A stretch of 41,987 bases of DNA. It comes from a virus (Duplodnaviria; Heunggongvirae; Uroviricota; Caudoviricetes). Positions 1,009 through 38,756 of this stretch are shown piece by piece. Numbering within the stretch: position 1 is the stretch's first letter; each line of letters opens with the position of its first letter. A program made the position numbers and the translations under genes. Location of the stretch: positions 1 through 41,987 of the IMG/VR virus record IMGVR_UViG_647533160_000006. The stretch is one strand, 5' to 3'. The notes under the pieces are model-generated. The model saw only the letters and a list, made by a program, of their open reading frames with translations. It did not search any database and was not told the DNA's origin.

Positions 1009-1083
1009 GTCCTCTTAGTTAAATGGATATAACGAGCCCCTCCTAAGGGCTAATTGCAGGTTCGATTCCTGCAGGGGACACCA
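1009..1083 (+). tRNA. argW: tRNA-Arg (anticodon CCU)
   Basis: 75-nt sequence GTCCTCTTAGTT...GCAGGTTCGATTCCTGCAGGGGACACCA; acceptor stem pairs, anticodon loop CTCCTAA, T-loop GGTTCGATTCC, encoded CCA end. Confidence 0.9.
1069..1083 (+). other. attL core (prophage left junction inside argW 3' end)
   Basis: 15-bp CTGCAGGGGACACCA at the 3' end of argW is repeated exactly at 40284-40298; integrase gene follows ~160 bp downstream. Confidence 0.6.
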
Positions 1084-1244
1084 TTTATCAGTTCGCTCCC
1101 ATCCGTACCAGTCCGCAAAATCCCCTGAATATCAAGCCTTCCGTATATTCAAAGTTCGTCATGGTTCGCGTCAGATCGTTGACAGCCGCACTCCATGACG
1201 GGTAAAAAGTGGATAAAATAATTTTACCCACCGGATTTTTACCC

Positions 1245-2402
1245 ATGCTCACCGTTAAGCAGATTGAAGCAGCAAAGCCGAAAGAAAAACCATACCGCCT
1301 TCTCGATGGTAATGGCCTGTACCTTTATGTCCCTGTATCCGGGAAAAAGGTATGGCAGCTTCGCTACAAGATTGACGGTAAGGAGAAAATCCTGACCGTA
1401 GGAAAATATCCGCTAATGACTTTGCAGGAGGCAAGGGATAAAGCATGGACTGCGAGGAAAGACATCTCGGTTGGCATCGATCCGGTAAAAGCGAAAAAGG
1501 CTTCGTCTAATAACAATTCCTTTAGCGCCATTTACAAGGAATGGTACGAGCACAAGAAGCAAGTCTGGTCAGTAGGGTATGCGACTGAACTTGCCAAAAT
1601 GTTTGATGACGACATTTTACCTATCATCGGCGGCCTTGAAATTCAGGATATTGAGCCGATGCAACTGCTGGAAGTAATCCGCAGATTTGAAGATCGCGGT
1701 GCAATGGAGCGAGCCAACAAAGCACGCAGAAGATGCGGCGAGGTTTTCCGTTACGCTATTGTCACCGGCAGGGCTAAATATAACCCGGCACCTGACCTTG
1801 CTGACGCCATGAAGGGATACCGCAAGAAGAACTTCCCGTTTCTTCCTGCAGACCAGATCCCGGCATTCAACAAAGCACTGGCAACATTTTCAGGAAGTAT
1901 CGTATCGCTCATTGCGACTAAAGTTTTGCGCTACACAGCCCTAAGAACGAAAGAGCTTCGCTCCATGCTATGGAAGAACGTTGATTTTGAAAACAGGATT
2001 ATCACCATCGACGCCAGTGTGATGAAGGGACGCAAAATTCATGTGGTCCCGATGTCAGACCAGGTGGTTGAACTTCTCACTACACTAAGCTCAATCACTA
2101 AACCAGTATCAGAGTTTGTTTTTGCCGGGCGCAACGATAAGAAAAAGCCAATCTGCGAGAACGCTGTGCTACTTGTGATCAAACAAATCGGCTATGAGGG
2201 TCTGGAAAGCGGCCACGGATTCAGGCATGAATTCAGCACGATTATGAACGAGCACGAATGGCCTGCTGACGCTATTGAAGTGCAACTGGCACATGCCAAC
2301 GGCGGATCTGTGCGCGGTATTTACAACCATGCTCAGTATTTCGATAAGCGCAGAGAAATGATGCAGTGGTGGGCGGACTGGATTGATGAAAAGGTGGAGT
2401 GA
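1245..2402 (+). CDS. intS: Tyrosine recombinase / phage integrase (IntS-like)
   Basis: ORF next to argW; translation from MLTVKQIEAAKPKEKPYRLLDGNGLYLYV gives 385 aa, the length I recall for E. coli IntS; the track ORF starts at an upstream GTG (1209) without a convincing RBS. Confidence 0.85.
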   Translation: MLTVKQIEAAKPKEKPYRLLDGNGLYLYVPVSGKKVWQLRYKIDGKEKILTVGKYPLMTLQEARDKAWTARKDISVGIDPVKAKKASSNNNSFSAIYKEWYEHKKQVWSVGYATELAKMFDDDILPIIGGLEIQDIEPMQLLEVIRRFEDRGAMERANKARRRCGEVFRYAIVTGRAKYNPAPDLADAMKGYRKKNFPFLPADQIPAFNKALATFSGSIVSLIATKVLRYTALRTKELRSMLWKNVDFENRIITIDASVMKGRKIHVVPMSDQVVELLTTLSSITKPVSEFVFAGRNDKKKPICENAVLLVIKQIGYEGLESGHGFRHEFSTIMNEHEWPADAIEVQLAHANGGSVRGIYNHAQYFDKRREMMQWWADWIDEKVE

Positions 2403-5798: not shown

Positions 5799-5866
5799 GT
5801 CAATATTTCCTAATCCGATTTGTTGATACCGAAGCCCTGACTGTTCCCGCAGTTGGGGCTTCAACT

Positions 5867-14735: not shown

Positions 14736-16031
14736 TCACGCGGTCTGGTTAGGCAGACCAACACCAATTGCCTCTGGTCGTACAGCACATGCTGAATACC
14801 ACACAGCAATACGGCACTTACCAGACAGAGTGTTGATATCACCCTGCGTTGCGAAGATGCCGTTAACACCAATACCAGGAATGCTGAAGGAAGACGTTTT
14901 CATGCCAGCAAACAGTTCATGGGTTACCGGGATCGGCTGAGATAGCAGGCGGATTGAGTCATCAGCCCAGAACACGTTAGCGGTGGTTGTTGCCACGTTC
15001 AGAACGTTTACCGGAGTGGTATCAGCAAGAGAGGTGTTTACGTTAGCGTAAGCCTTCTCTTCTTTTGTCAGTGACGCGTCATCCAGTGCAATCGGCTTCG
15101 GCGTGATTTCGATGTGAGTACCATCGATCACACGGGTGATTGAGAAAGTAGCATCATCAGTCAGCACGTTCTTCGCCATCTGAGACAGGAATTTCACACC
15201 AGTGAAGCTGATTTTGTCGCCGCGCTTAAACCCGGTGGTGGAGGATACGGTCACCGTTGCAACACGGTTGTCGACGTTCTCTTTGTTACCATCGGTATCA
15301 AGAGTGTATGCCTGCGGCTTAAACTTCTGCGCACCAGAAACAGTTACACCAGTAGCGGTTGACTTGGTAACTGCCGGAAGTTTCGGTGAGCGAAGAATTT
15401 CATCAAAGCCAGCAATCTGACGCTGAATAGTACCGTTGCGATACGCTTCTTCAGGAACGCGACCGAAGATGTCACCATCTACCAGGTTGCGGCCTGCTTT
15501 GCGGTAATCGTCAGGGTTCAGGAAGTAACTGATGCCCATATCGCGGTTTAGCTCACGGGAGAACATCAGGCGCTCTGCATCAGACACAAAATCCCAGCCA
15601 GACAGGCCAGTAGATGGACCAATTGCGCGGGTATCGTGAACAACAAGCGAGCCCATTTCAGTTGCCTGTTTGGCAATTGCTGACTCAATGTTATTCGCCA
15701 GTTTTTTGGCGGATGCCTGGATGCGGCGACGGTAAGAACGCTCATCACGCAGGTCATCTGCACGAAGCTCGAAGAAATCGTTATCCGGATCGCCCATGTT
15801 GCATTTCACGGAGAGTTCCAGAATCCCGGTTGCGTTGCCAGTTAAATCCCAGCCAGTCTGGGTTGGCGCTTCCTGCTCAACAGGCATCCACACGGTGTTG
15901 CTTGAACGCTGCATGGATTCTGCCGGAGGGGTGTATTTTGTCACTTTGGACGCCATTGGCGTCAGGTTCTGGACGGTTTCGATGATTTCATCCAGAGCAT
16001 ACGTGACCAGTTGACCTTCATTTAATGCCAT
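14736..16031 (-). CDS. Major coat protein (P22 gp5-like)
   Basis: 431-aa product [27 protein letters not shown]... collinear with recalled P22 coat protein. Confidence 0.9.
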
Positions 16032-27557: not shown

Positions 27558-27571
27558 GACTTCCCTCTCCC

Positions 27572-27605
27572 CCAAATAAAAAGGCCTGCGATTACCAGCA
27601 GGCCT
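27572..27605 (-). terminator. tR2-like intrinsic terminator between replication genes and nin region
   Basis: Minus-strand read AGGCCTGC-TGGTAATC-GCAGGCCT followed by TTTTTATTTGG, right after the primase-helicase stop. Confidence 0.65.
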
Positions 27606-27634: not shown

Positions 27635-29515
27635 TTAATACTCCGTCACGTTTTCCTGTCGCCACGCCTCGTCATATTCCGATTTCGGCATATTGGCGAT
27701 GTAGCTATATGGCGATCCTGATTCAAGTTGCAGGAACTGGTGCGATTGCTCGTCAAGGAACAACGGGACACCACCTTCCCAACCTTCGCCGTTACGTTGT
27801 TTTTCAAGCATCAAAACAGATGCCGGAGACGCCAGTAGCTGTTCGTCCTTCTCTGACATCTTTTCACCACTCTGAACTCTCTGTAACGCTCTCTCGCGAG
27901 CCTTGTTACGCCAGATGATGAAAAGGTTGTCTGTCAGGTCTGTTATCGCTCCAGAGCCTTTTACGTCCATTTTCCCGGTTGGTTTTTCTTCGCTGTCTCC
28001 TTTTCGCGAGTGAGTAACGAGAATGACGTGGGAGTTTGTTTTGTTTTTGAAGTCGCAAATCGAGTCAACAAACGCCTTCTGCCCGTTATAGTCATCGTCG
28101 CCTATGCCACATTTCATCAGGCTGTCGATGATGAATAACTGGATCCCGTATCGGCGGCGAGCGTAGTCGAATATTTCGATCAGCCTGTCGGCTTTCGCCG
28201 TTCCGGTCAGGCCAAACACCCAAAGTCTTTCGTCATAAAATTTAAATGCAGAGTCAATTTCCAGCACTGGCGGAATCTTGCAGCACGTCGCCTGACGGGT
28301 AAGGCGCTTAAGGAGAATACCAGGCTTCAGCTCAAGTGACGCGATGCACGTCTTCACACCCTGACGCATTGCCTCAAGTGCCATATGCCCGACAACCTCC
28401 GTTTTTCCGTGACCGTTCACACCATTGACCAGCGTCAACTCTGCCTCACGGAACTGGAATTTATCTGCCAGAGATTCCCACGGTGGATTAAACAGATACT
28501 GCTGCTTGCCGTAGAAAGCATTGATAGTGTCCTGGTAAAACTCTCGCGCACTGTAGAGTTCTTCAGGATCGAAGTAGGATGCCGTGCCGATGTACTGCCA
28601 GATTTCATCCTCGGTAACACCGTTCATCAGGCATTCGTTGATGTCTTTGTACGGCAGAGTAACAAGACGGCAACGATGTTCACCGAGTCGGCTTGCGATT
28701 TCCCTTGCGGCTTCACGACCAACATCATCAACGTCCATCGAGATGAATATTTCCTCAAACCTGTCGAGATTGTGATACTCAAACTCAATCCACTGCTGCT
28801 TAGCGCCTTTCCCGCCACCAAACGGCACGGATAACGCCGAGATGCCGTATTGCGCATAGCTCATACAATCAATTTCGCCTTCGCAAAGTACAACCGCCCT
28901 CACGCCAGCGTCCAGAGCCTGCCATCCGAACAGACAAGGTTCGCAATCACCTTCTGCCATAATGACTTTCTTCCCGTCCGGGCGCTCAGTGCTGATTCGC
29001 TTGACCTGCAACAACTCACCATCGCGTTTGTACGGAAGCACCAGTGCATCAAGTTCTCGTTCTCCATTCCACACCTTGCCGCTGACAACCTCGTAGCGCT
29101 TTACGACTTCTGGCGATATGCCACGCGATTGCAAGTACTCAAGATGGGATTCTGTTCTGGTAACGTAGCGGGCGATTTTCTTGCGATCAGGTCTGGAGAA
29201 TTTCTTCTCACGTTTGGCATCGAAATGGTGATCGTCATCCTTGATACCGAGAAATGCTTTCGCTTCCTGCATAGCCTGATGCAGGTTAATTCCACGACAT
29301 GCCATCCACAAATCAAGCATGTCACCGCCGTCTCCCTCAGCGAAATCAGCCCATTTTTTCTTGCCGCTAAGGTTGACCTTAAGGCTGTTTCCCTTGTCGC
29401 CGTTGACGTTACCGGCAACCCACTCATGCCCCTCTTTCTTGCCGTTTGGCAACAGGTGCGGAGCCACCCTGTCAACCTGCGCCCAAAGCAGGTCGCTGAG
29501 TTCACTTGGCGTCAT
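27635..29515 (-). CDS. Replicative primase-helicase (Toprim + DnaB/P-loop helicase domains)
   Basis: 626 aa; Toprim-like segment (VVLCEGEIDCMSYAQYGISALSVPFGGG) and Walker A (VNGVNGHGKT); occupies the lambda P position. Confidence 0.75.
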   Translation of the reverse strand: MTPSELSDLLWAQVDRVAPHLLPNGKKEGHEWVAGNVNGDKGNSLKVNLSGKKKWADFAEGDGGDMLDLWMACRGINLHQAMQEAKAFLGIKDDDHHFDAKREKKFSRPDRKKIARYVTRTESHLEYLQSRGISPEVVKRYEVVSGKVWNGERELDALVLPYKRDGELLQVKRISTERPDGKKVIMAEGDCEPCLFGWQALDAGVRAVVLCEGEIDCMSYAQYGISALSVPFGGGKGAKQQWIEFEYHNLDRFEEIFISMDVDDVGREAAREIASRLGEHRCRLVTLPYKDINECLMNGVTEDEIWQYIGTASYFDPEELYSAREFYQDTINAFYGKQQYLFNPPWESLADKFQFREAELTLVNGVNGHGKTEVVGHMALEAMRQGVKTCIASLELKPGILLKRLTRQATCCKIPPVLEIDSAFKFYDERLWVFGLTGTAKADRLIEIFDYARRRYGIQLFIIDSLMKCGIGDDDYNGQKAFVDSICDFKNKTNSHVILVTHSRKGDSEEKPTGKMDVKGSGAITDLTDNLFIIWRNKARERALQRVQSGEKMSEKDEQLLASPASVLMLEKQRNGEGWEGGVPLFLDEQSHQFLQLESGSPYSYIANMPKSEYDEAWRQENVTEY

Positions 29516-29622: not shown

Positions 29623-30483
29623 TCACCTGTCGAAAAACACGTAGCCAGTTTTCGATACGGTGATTGCGGATGATGGTTTGGATTGTGGTTGAATAGTTTC
29701 TGGCTTCTCGTCGTTCCAGCGTTGACCGTTCAGGTAGCTCGATGGTAACAACCTGTCGAATCCGAACTGCTTACCATTCCTGCATGCGATGTCTTCTGCC
29801 AGCATCGTGGCAAACTCTCTTGCCGTACCCTTGGTAGTTTTACGCCATTCCCTGAACTGTGTTCTGAATGCCGAAGCTGCGTTTTTCTTCCCGGCTTTCC
29901 GCATGCCTGCACACCAGAATATTTCCTCGAATGCCTTGTCGGTTTCTTCGTGACGGTCATGTGATTTTTCACACTCCGTCCGAACACTTTCGGACATAGT
30001 GTTTTTATTATTTCTTTTTTCTTTTGTAATAGTTTCTTTTGTGTGTCCCTGTTTTGGTGACAGCGCTGTCACCGTTTTGGTGACACTTTTTGTCACCAAT
30101 GCAGTGACATTATCACCAGAGTAGTGACACCCTTCTATTTGCCATTCCTCGATGTTCTTGTTAGGCCCGATTTGCTGGCCTTCGCGAAGGATAACCTTCA
30201 TCGCGATAAGCTCATTCTTGGCCTTGTTTACCTTCTGTCTTGGCAGCCTGGTAATTTGAGCTAACTGACTATCAGAGATGCGATCCATCTTTTTACCGTA
30301 GCCGTATGTTTTACGGCATATGGCGTGGGCAACCTTGCTCTGATTTTTAGTTAAATCTGCGCCGATAAGCTCTTCATACAGGGCATTTGCAAGACGGGTA
30401 TAACCATCTTCAACTTCTGCCACACGACGCTCCACAGGCCGTTGTGAAGGCCTTAAATGTGTTACGGTTGCAAGATTACTCAT
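29623..30483 (-). CDS. O: Replication initiator, lambda O-like
   Basis: N-terminal region ...[56 protein letters not shown] resembles lambda O; iterons lie inside the gene. Confidence 0.8.
30050..30135. repeat. Replication origin iterons (about 4 GGTGACA/TGTCACC dyad repeats) with adjacent AT-rich tract
   Basis: GTTTTGGTGACAGCGCTGTCACC, GTTTTGGTGACACTTTTTGTCACC, CAGTGACATTATCACC, AGTAGTGACACC in series inside the O-like gene; AT-rich tract at ~30000-30045. Confidence 0.7.
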
Positions 30484-30622
30484 GACCTTTCTCCTTCTGC
30501 ATCAGCTTCACTTTTTCCAACTCAGCCCGGAATCGACCAGGCTGCTTGAAGCTGGACAGGAAGCGATCACGTAGTATGTGTTTGTGAATTTTGTCCTGGT
30601 AAGGACTGAGTTGTTTTGTCAT
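30476..30622 (-). CDS. Small hypothetical protein (48 aa) between cII and O
   Basis: ATG 5 nt after AGGAG; [48 protein letters not shown]; stop overlaps O start. Confidence 0.4.
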
Positions 30623-30656
30623 AATTACTCCTGTGGATTGATCCAGTCTTTCTACA

Positions 30657-30935
30657 TCAGGCCTCGAAGAATTCGCCGTTCTTCGGGGCTTTTTCTTTTG
30701 TCAGCATTCTGGCTACTTGCTTAGCCAGTTCCGCCAACTCCTCGTCTTCAACACCCCATTCAAGAACAGCCAGAAGCATTCCCATTTTTGGGATGAAGCT
30801 ATCTTTCCATCGCGAAATTTGCGATTCATTAATCCCTAACGCGTCGGCAACCTTTCGCTGACCACGTACAGCAATTCGATTCAGGATGTTGCTTGTAATT
30901 GCATTCGCTTTCTTGCGAGTACTTGTAAGTTCCAT
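30657..30935 (-). CDS. cII: CII-like transcriptional activator
   Basis: From [62 protein letters not shown], resembling lambda CII; AAGGAAA RBS; the track ORF is extended upstream. Confidence 0.8.
30661..30700 (+). terminator. Plus-strand intrinsic terminator antisense to cII 3' end (OOP-like)
   Basis: GCCTCGAAGAA-TTCGCCGT-TCTTCGGGGC followed by TTTTTCTTTTG on the strand opposite cII. Confidence 0.6.
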
Positions 30936-30992
30936 ATGTAAGTATTTCCTTAACAAATAAGAAGTTATGCGCATCAACTTATGCGCGTTGTA

Positions 30993-31037
30993 TTCCCGCA
31001 TTTCGGCGGGAATGATGACCATGACTGTTAAAGAGCG
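30993..31037 (-). promoter_or_regulatory. nutR (boxA + boxB)
   Basis: Minus-strand read CGCTCTTTAACAG (boxA) then hairpin TCCCGC-CGAAAT-GCGGGA (boxB) between cro and cII; boxB is identical to the nutL copy. Confidence 0.75.
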
Positions 31038-31043
31038 GTGTTA

Positions 31044-31238
31044 CTATTTGTTTTTCTTGTTGCTTGGGAAAGGACGAACTTCCTCTCCAATCACACTGCC
31101 ATCAGGCTTTACCGTAACCATGATGTTACGGCCTGCCAGAATGGCCTTGCTGATAGCGCACTGGATTACACCAAAGTCACTGGCTGCTTTAGCCTGTCCA
31201 TGGATTTTGGCGTAATCGGCAAGTGTCATTCGAATCAT
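31044..31238 (-). CDS. cro: Cro-like repressor
   Basis: C-terminal part [40 protein letters not shown] parallels lambda Cro; GGAGA RBS; divergent from cI. Confidence 0.8.
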
Positions 31239-31268
31239 ATGCACTCTCCGTTATTAACCATGAACAAA

Positions 31269-31344: not shown

Positions 31345-32061
31345 ATGGAAAATAAAAAATCACTGACGACAGAACAGCTCGAAGACGCTAAGCGGCTTAA
31401 GGCTTTGTATGAGTCAAAAAAGAAAGAATTGGGAATAACCCAATACTCAATCGCTGATGAACTGGGTATCACCCAAGGAGCGGTAGGGCATTATCTTAAT
31501 GGCAGAAACGCGCTAAACGTTGAGGTTGCATCTGGTTTTGCACGATTGTTGCAAGTCTCAATTGCTGATTTTAGCCAGTCAATTGCTGCCAAGGTTGCAG
31601 AACAGGCAGAAAGCCTTAAGAGCGATGCCAACGTAAGGTATGCAGGGGAATACAGAGCAGGAAAGAGGTATCCGGTGTTAAGCAGTATCCAGGCTGGCTC
31701 GTGGTGTGAAGCATGCGAACCATACACCATTAAAGACATAGATGTTTGGCTTGAGTCTGACGCGCATATTCAAGGTAATGCGTTTTGGCTTAAAGTGGAA
31801 GGTGATTCAATGACGGCACCGGTTGGGTTAAGCATTCCAGAGGGAACATTCGTTCTTTTCGATACCGGAAGGGAGGCGATCAACGGCAGCTTGGTCATAG
31901 CAAAACTTTCTGACTCTAACGAAGCAACATTCAAGAAGCTGATAATCGACGGAGGAAATAAATACCTCAAGGGACTTAACCCTGCATGGCCTCTCGTGCC
32001 AATCAATGGAAACTGCAAGATTATAGGCGTTGCAATTGAGACAAAACTAAGGCTGGTTTGA
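31345..32061 (+). CDS. cI: CI-like prophage repressor (HTH + LexA-type S24 peptidase domain)
   Basis: 238 aa; N-terminus LTTEQLEDAKRLKALYESKKKELGITQYSIADELG parallels lambda CI; C-terminal ...VEGDSMTAP...FKKLI... autocleavage-domain pattern. Confidence 0.85.
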   Translation: MENKKSLTTEQLEDAKRLKALYESKKKELGITQYSIADELGITQGAVGHYLNGRNALNVEVASGFARLLQVSIADFSQSIAAKVAEQAESLKSDANVRYAGEYRAGKRYPVLSSIQAGSWCEACEPYTIKDIDVWLESDAHIQGNAFWLKVEGDSMTAPVGLSIPEGTFVLFDTGREAINGSLVIAKLSDSNEATFKKLIIDGGNKYLKGLNPAWPLVPINGNCKIIGVAIETKLRLV

Positions 32062-38073: not shown

Positions 38074-38756
38074 TCAAGATTGACTATCAGGCACTGCGTG
38101 AAAAGGCAGAGAAAGCAACTAAAGGAAGCTACATCGTAGGGCATACATCTGTTAACCAGCACGGTAATTTAACAGGAGTTTTTGTTTGTCAAAAATGGAA
38201 AGGAGAACCCGGTGGCGTGATTGCAGAATGTCATGTTAACTGCCTGGTTGAAACAGATGCTCAGGCTTATGCAAACGCTGAATTTATTGCTGCCTTTAAT
38301 CCAAAGATTGCTCTGGCACTACTGGATGAACGGGAAAGAAACCAGCAATACATCAAATCACGCGACCAGGAGAACGAGGATATTGCACTAACGGTTGGGA
38401 AGCTGAGAGTTGAGCTGGAAGCCGCAGAGAAGCGCAACGCAAAATTACAAAGCGAGAATGCATACATCCGCAACCGGTACAAAGAACTGGACCTATTAAT
38501 CGGGAAAAACATTCTTGTCATGCAGGCTGCGATTATCGAATGGCAGGCAACTGGCGACGCTAAAAGCGGACTGGCATGGATTTATAACACACTGTTTGGC
38601 CAAGGCGAATTGCCGGACAAATCTGAGAAAGATGCTCAGGCCTACTTTAAGCGCAAATATGCACCGATTGACGAAAAGCTTATGGAGCTTCACAAGTGGT
38701 TTTGGGAGCAAAGTGAAGCCGAGCGCGCCGCTGGCATTCGCATCAAAGGAGAGTGA
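38070..38756 (+). CDS. Ead/Ea22-like early protein
   Basis: 228 aa; N-terminal [19 protein letters not shown]...FIAAFNPKIALALLDERE and central coiled coil resemble the Ea22-like family as I recall it. Confidence 0.6.
   Translation: MIKIDYQALREKAEKATKGSYIVGHTSVNQHGNLTGVFVCQKWKGEPGGVIAECHVNCLVETDAQAYANAEFIAAFNPKIALALLDERERNQQYIKSRDQENEDIALTVGKLRVELEAAEKRNAKLQSENAYIRNRYKELDLLIGKNILVMQAAIIEWQATGDAKSGLAWIYNTLFGQGELPDKSEKDAQAYFKRKYAPIDEKLMELHKWFWEQSEAERAAGIRIKGE

Follow-up and report, generated by a model that had tools for sequence, protein, structure and literature searches.

A locus for a predicted short, P22-type OOP-like antisense RNA opposite the 3' end of cII in an Escherichia coli lambdoid prophage

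This analysis revealed that the DNA opposite the 3' end of cII in an E. coli prophage is, very probably, the pO-oop-tO unit of a P22/HK620-like lambdoid prophage, whose antisense RNA of about 63-66 nt would lower cII. OOP has been known for about fifty years, and the OOP-like locus described here is this already known RNA in its short, P22-type form. An RNA of about 66 nt is predicted on the plus strand at positions 30633-30698 of the window, that is, of the whole 41,987-nt stretch of DNA that was analysed, on the basis of homology to the lambda OOP start site (+1), to BTP1 and to P22. An earlier sequence-only reading had proposed an OOP-like antisense RNA at 30630-30700, an interval that matches the predicted RNA almost exactly. 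This proposal is now supported by a block of sequence common to the window and lambda, by a 65/66 identity with the RNA of BTP1, by the 5' half and hairpin architecture that it has in common with the P22 RNA and by a promoter that could be located. The assignment to OOP is supported by sequence homology, beyond position alone. The anatomy of the locus, its homology to known loci and the conservation of its hairpin through compensatory changes are established in the window.

The window is a P22-like (Lederbergvirus)/HK620-like E. coli lambdoid prophage in reverse orientation. Its early-right genes all lie on the minus strand, in the order cro (31044-31244), cII (30657-30935), a DUF2740 ORF (30476-30622), an O-like initiator gene (29623-30483) and a primase/helicase gene (27635-29515), while cI lies on the plus strand at 31345-32061. 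The 92-aa product of cII starts at the ATG at 30935 and its stop codon occupies 30657-30659. Residues 1-91 give a full-length match to Pfam Phage_CII (E = 1e-42), which confirms that the gene on the opposite strand is cII, as had been assumed. The ORF as called mechanically is longer (30657-31022, minus strand; 121 aa from a start at 31022), and the full-length Pfam match begins at the ATG at 30935. This start agrees with the annotation of HK620, the corresponding region of which is 97% identical. The small, hkaW-like DUF2740 gene (Pfam DUF2740, E = 9e-29) is preceded by a Shine-Dalgarno sequence, AGGAGT, at 30632-30627. Over the cro-cII-DUF2740 segment (30476-31100), HK620, HK630 and phi296 match the window at 97-99% identity in their immunity/early-right regions, and phage CP-1639 is 100% identical over 159 nt around the OOP-like locus.

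Several other features of the prophage were observed. In the replication module, the O-like initiator is accompanied by a 626-aa fusion of a Toprim primase and a DnaB-like helicase, which takes the place of a P-type loader as in lambda. Four iteron-like repeats (TGTCACC-N6-GTGACA, spaced by 20-24 bp) lie at 30044-30129 within the O-like gene and presumably constitute the replication origin; they also score as terminator-like in hairpin scans. The sar antisense RNA of the P22 immI region is present at 5800-5866 on the plus strand (Rfam RF00262, 71.6 bits, E = 4e-13). A tRNA-Arg(CCT) gene (1009-1083, plus strand) is directly followed by an integrase-sized ORF of 397 aa in the integrase position (1209-2402, plus strand), which suggests that the prophage resides at a tRNA-Arg attachment site. 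A clean terminator-like hairpin at 27559-27582 on the minus strand, AGGCCTGCTGGTAATCGCAGGCCT with TTTTTATT after it, occupies a tR2-like position just 3' of the primase/helicase gene. Another terminator-like hairpin, at about 15026-15068 on the plus strand (-17.0 kcal/mol), is antisense within a late gene and may be due to chance, its energy lying inside the range obtained from shuffled windows.

With regard to the terminator, a plus-strand intrinsic terminator was indeed found at the place proposed, comprising a hairpin at 30659-30691 and a T tract at 30690-30699. In this tO-like terminator (30659-30699), positions 30659-30672 pair with 30678-30691 around a TCGCC loop. The stem contains 14 pairs, of which six are G-C and three are G.U; the hairpin itself had been recognized correctly, while the stem length of 10 bp given for it was an understatement. 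The T tract reads TTTTTCTTTT, its first two T doubling as the last two stem positions, and the next base is G30700. The 3' end of the RNA is predicted at about 30696-30699. Given that the stop codon of cII occupies 30657-30659, the terminator covers this codon and the last 13 codons of the gene, consistent with the placement over the last codons of cII in the earlier reading. The qualification of this terminator as strong was also borne out, as it is the best combination of hairpin and T tract on either strand of the window (-19.5 kcal/mol).

The closest counterpart of known transcription is found in BTP1, a Lederbergvirus of Salmonella, in which OOP was annotated from a dRNA-seq/RNA-seq transcriptome (PMC7067206); the supplementary text of that paper makes no mention of OOP. 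The BTP1 locus has the same position, an RNA body that is identical at 65 of 66 positions, an identical terminator hairpin and T tract and the same -10 hexamer, and its upstream sequence aligns with the DUF2740-type module of the window. The two loci differ in a single RNA base, at +3 (G to T), and in two bases of the promoter and discriminator. In addition, the BTP1 record has no ORF annotated in the aligned DUF2740-type module, and the host is Salmonella for BTP1 and E. coli for the prophage studied here.

In P22, an oop RNA was first identified by Backhaus and Petri in 1984, as cited in PMC13397905. Small-RNA sequencing published in 2026 yielded P22C-oop, an RNA of 63 nt with the sequence GAUUGAUCCAG...GGCUUUUCUUU (PMC13397905), at 653 RPM in vesicles and 1513 RPM in cells of infected samples and at 0 in uninfected samples (PMC13397905, Table 2). 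P22 oop shares with the window a short architecture of about 63-67 nt, an identical 5' stretch of 33 nt, the antisense position relative to the 3' end of c1, the cII homologue, and a promoter-side/upstream module that is near-identical, with a few substitutions. It differs in the inner half of the terminator stem, which is rewritten by compensatory changes in five pairs, an additional pair and an A x C mismatch, as well as in one extra hairpin base and in a T tract that is one T shorter. The CII/C1 tail also differs, being PQDCGNSFEA / ...KEKPQDCGNSFEA in P22 and different in the window. The lambda-based prediction and the P22 read place the start 3 nt apart, the read beginning further downstream, and the 5' end of the RNA in the window is therefore given as 30633, or as 30636 if the P22 read marks a true start. 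An RNA of this kind has been observed in relatives, and for the present prophage it is predicted from its sequence.

The comparison with lambda is based on a 33-bp block at 30615-30647, which aligns, against the reverse complement of lambda 38570-38750, with the -10 element of pO and the 5' end of OOP. In lambda, the common sequence, TTTGTCATAATnACTCCTGTnGATnGATCCAGT, contains the -10 hexamer of pO (CATAAT) as well as the initial 15 nt of OOP. The conserved OOP 5' sequence GUnGAUnGAUCCAGU is present in the window, as GTGGATTGATCCAGT at 30633-30647. For the complete lambda RNA we used what we take to be its 77-nt sequence, which is consistent with the computed fold. The lambda unit, with its OOP RNA of 77 nt, pO and tO, goes back to Krinke and Wulff 1987 and 1990, as cited in PMC5869508 and PMC2327240. 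In both loci, a TG precedes the pO -10 hexamer CATAAT, which overlies the start codon of the following gene, the RNA has the same 5' sequence and an intrinsic terminator lies within the last codons of cII; the cII stop codon, at positions 23-25 of the RNA in lambda, also counts among the likenesses. In contrast, the RNA of the window is 11 nt shorter (about 66 versus 77 nt) and lacks the 5' stem-loop of 11-14 pairs of lambda OOP, about 12 nt being missing in the alignment. The overlap with cII amounts to 39 coding nt rather than 52, and the next gene is the DUF2740 ORF rather than O.

The predicted RNA (30633-30698) spans 24 nt of the spacer between cII and the DUF2740 gene and 42 nt of cII, including the stop codon. 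Where lambda has its large 5' stem-loop, the fold gives a small stem at 30633-30655, in which GUGGA (30633-37) may pair with UCUAC (30651-55); this five-pair stem is a weak prediction. The allele classes have no common register for the 5' stem-loop: the downstream segment that pairs with the invariant 5' block is a different one in the lambda-type, 434-like and short forms. A covariance model built from 19 long-form sequences of the lambda/434 type only gave its top hit in the whole window at 30633-30696 on the plus strand, aligned from end to end, with a score of only 17.1 bits and a rough E of about 0.1. Rfam 15 contains no OOP family, and neither the window nor lambda oop gave a relevant match to it, at the gathering threshold or with E up to 10; low-scoring matches such as ctRNA_p42d (19 bits) were judged to be due to chance. 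Because Rfam lacks the family and the E value of the covariance model is marginal, membership in OOP rests mainly on the direct identity with the BTP1 and P22 loci. A small-protein reading of the locus was considered and rejected, as the plus-strand ORF at 30578-30724 starts upstream of the predicted start site and reads through the terminator.

The promoter had not been confidently located in the sequence-only reading. Its core can now be placed at 30617-30625 by homology with lambda pO, whereas a consensus promoter scan found no promoter at this site. This pO-like core is a putative extended -10 element, TG-T-CATAAT, with the TG at 30617-18 and the hexamer at 30620-30625; in the alignment, TTTGTCATAAT is identical in the window and in lambda. 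Read on the opposite strand, the CAT of the hexamer is the ATG that starts the DUF2740 gene, and in lambda the CAT of CATAAT corresponds in this way to the start codon of O. The lambda pO- mutation is located in the -10 region, with 2 bp between it and the first codon of O (PMC3985674), a position that fits CATAAT as the -10 element of lambda pO. The -35 element TTGAGT of lambda (17-bp spacer) is not in place in the window, a 9-bp gap in the alignment displacing the lambda hexamer. The only candidate is the weak TGGTAA at 30597-30602 (17-bp spacer, three of six matches), where P22 has TGGTCA. The displacement of the lambda-type -35 and the poor match of TGGTAA explain why both the consensus scan and the earlier reading missed the promoter. 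As a lambda-type -35 is missing from P22 and BTP1 as well, its lack marks the short P22-type subgroup and does not exclude the locus from OOP. The predicted promoter of the P22-type short form would depend on its TGn-extended -10.

A scan of IMG/VR with a pattern for the conserved block yielded at least 120 stretches which, with the window and reference phages, make at least 121 loci with at least 28 distinct RNA bodies. They fall into a long form of 79-82 nt (as extracted, with tail), comprising the lambda type and a second, presumably 434-like class, and a short form of 66-67 nt, comprising the window/HK620/Sf6/BTP1 type and the P22 type. Among the matches listed, TG-n-CATAAT is kept in 17/17 upstream variants and 121/121 loci, n being T, G or C; in these loci, n alters codon 2 of the overlapping gene (Thr, Pro or Ala) and the TG, including a wobble position, is constant. 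All 14 distinct hairpin variants among the matches listed have a stem of 9-14 pairs with a T tract directly after it. In the 19 long-form sequences, 99.1% of the cells of the 12-pair terminator helix are paired, and two pairs change on both sides (18 cells); when the 3' partners were slid by 1-3 columns as a control, pairing fell to 37-62%. This column counting was applied to the long forms only. MAFFT alignments of long with short forms and of window-type with P22-type hairpins were out of register, and the pairs of the window and P22 stems were therefore counted by their rank from the stem base. Five changes proved to be two-sided, one was one-sided and one was a mismatch, and the encoded CII tails differ.

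If the locus works as the lambda unit does, RNA polymerase would start at the extended -10 element TGtCATAAT (30617-30625), which overlaps the start codon of the gene after cII, and transcribe leftward on the phage map, on the plus strand of the window, from about G30633. Transcription would end at the intrinsic terminator within the 3' end of cII (30659-30699), with a product of about 63-66 nt. This RNA would pair fully with the pR message over 24 nt of spacer, the stop codon and the last 13 codons of cII, RNase III would cut the duplex and the cII part of the message would be degraded, as in lambda; less CII would tilt the decision towards lytic growth. Lambda OOP extends from pO to tO and overlaps cII by 52 bases; its expression suppresses the activities of CII, and it acts by way of RNase III, which cleaves the cII-O message (PMC5869508, PMC2327240, PMC12197685). 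RNase III-dependent down-regulation of cII is known for lambda only, from Krinke and Wulff, as cited in PMC5869508 and PMC2327240. By analogy, an RNase III-dependent lowering of cII may be expected in this prophage. The size of the effect is uncertain, because the part that lambda OOP plays in removing CII after SOS induction is minor at best (PMC2327240).

It is possible, if doubtful, that pO matters more than the RNA. Convergent transcription from pO would then dampen pR transcription into the replication genes and the origin and tune replication, the RNA being largely a by-product, a reading that is compatible with antisense action. The activity of pO does lower pR-driven transcription in lambda, and replication is poor in a pO- mutant (PMC3985674). 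In the window, pO is directed against the pR transcript immediately before the DUF2740 gene, the O-like gene and the ori iterons (30044-30129). Nevertheless, interference by pO leaves unexplained why a strong terminator is kept inside cII by compensatory change in every allele class, and lambda OOP supplied alone suppresses CII phenotypes (PMC5869508). The hairpin might also act as a barrier that protects the immunity region from stray plus-strand transcription out of the replication/nin region, with no dedicated promoter and no discrete RNA. The empty consensus scan and the poor -35 would agree with this, but the TG and -10 stand at a fixed distance in 121 of the 121 loci among the matches listed, and discrete RNAs of 63 nt in P22 (PMC13397905) and 77 nt in lambda start at, or at most 3 nt from, the start predicted from the block, so that a barrier without an RNA is very unlikely.

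Two further readings concern the hairpin itself. That the structure belongs to the cII mRNA, as a processing site, a stability element or a constraint from the C-terminal tail of CII, seems extremely improbable. The complementary strand does fold, and the C-terminal 16 residues of lambda CII are a degradation signal (PMC5869508). Against this, the hairpin in the window is more stable on the OOP strand (-19.5 kcal/mol) than on the cII-mRNA strand (-12.6 kcal/mol), where its three G.U pairs turn into A.C mismatches; the G.U pairs and the T tract after the stem exist on the plus strand only, and pairing is kept while the protein tails diverge. The OOP strand folds more stably in 8 of 11 variants, the P22-type stems being about equal on both strands. 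The probability that a hairpin and a T run arose by chance in a coding region is practically nil. Terminator-like matches are common, eight having been observed in 3.5 kb versus 3.3 expected, yet the 68-nt stretch from 30633 folds at -27.2 kcal/mol with z = -5.6, none of 200 dinucleotide shuffles being as stable, and the hairpin of 30659-30699, at -19.5 kcal/mol, surpasses the best one in each of five shuffled windows (-14.4 to -17.1 kcal/mol). A chance origin is refuted by the conservation with covariation across phages. The pO-oop-tO reading remains the preferred one.

The 33-bp block at 30615-30647 is also a mosaic joint, as seen from the comparison of loci and the annotation of Sf6. Among the 121 loci in the matches listed, it links at least five replication-side modules to at least four classes of cII tail and hairpin, in many combinations. 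The Sf6 record carries the entry 'bsq5; boundary sequence' (27827-27859) on the same block between cII and the next gene; this denotes a recombination joint rather than a promoter or an RNA start, and both descriptions fit the same DNA. As the Shine-Dalgarno sequence and ATG of the following gene also lie in this block, which serves as a recombination joint too, conservation of the block is not specific evidence for a promoter. The position of pO and the OOP start on a mosaic boundary means that any cII allele can be joined to any replication module with the regulator retained.

A LexA-box-like palindrome, TCCTGTGGATTGATCCAGTC, lies over the start site at 30629-30648, with a CTG-N10-CAG core at 30631-30646. 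It scores 10.6 on a rough PWM built from SOS boxes, below all training sites (at least 13), and chance alone would give the window about two sites of this quality. The corresponding site in lambda oop-pO, which we take to be TCCTGTTGATAGATCCAGTA, scores 15.6 on the same rough PWM, against 10.6 in the window. A LexA-binding sequence within lambda oop-pO was described by Lewis et al. 1994, as cited in PMC5869508. Together with 28549-28568, which also scores 10.6, 30629-30648 is one of the two best LexA-like sites of the window, both below known SOS boxes. The sequence TGTGGAT at the OOP start (30632-30638) resembles the core of a DnaA box, and DnaA protects two sites downstream of pO in lambda (PMC3985674). 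The -10 element and start site, the LexA-like palindrome, the bsq5 joint and, for the following gene, both the Shine-Dalgarno sequence and the start codon all fall within one 33-bp block, and the predicted duplex of RNA and mRNA would reach to within 1 nt of the DUF2740 Shine-Dalgarno sequence (that of O in lambda). It is nonetheless unlikely that the short, P22-type OOP is more than a simple copy of lambda OOP, in that it is under SOS control through the palindrome and gates the translation or stability of the replication-gene message in addition to cII.

The matches in the phage collection came from Escherichia, Salmonella, Shigella and Stx-converting phages. With a 121-nt query, at least a partial match was found in 1,039 of 5,426 complete E. 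coli genomes and a match with at least 80% coverage in 159. Eight complete E. coli genomes were listed with an identical copy, and their annotation at this place is confined to the CII and DUF2740 genes. A scan of genome contigs with an 18-mer of the short form gave 15 matches versus about 17 expected by chance, and only two of them were true homologues. These two, JAEZIN010000021.1 (from a 'Bacillota bacterium' MAG) and JAJXBQ010000254.1 (from a 'Segatella copri' MAG), are short contigs carrying an exact enterobacterial-phage pO-oop, and are probably mis-binned phage contigs.

The OOP-like locus brings nothing new to phage biology, as the P22 counterpart has been known since 1984 and the allele of the window was annotated in BTP1 in 2020. 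What it does illustrate is that the OOP RNA goes unannotated, a gap that a curated covariance model covering both the long and the short forms would fix.
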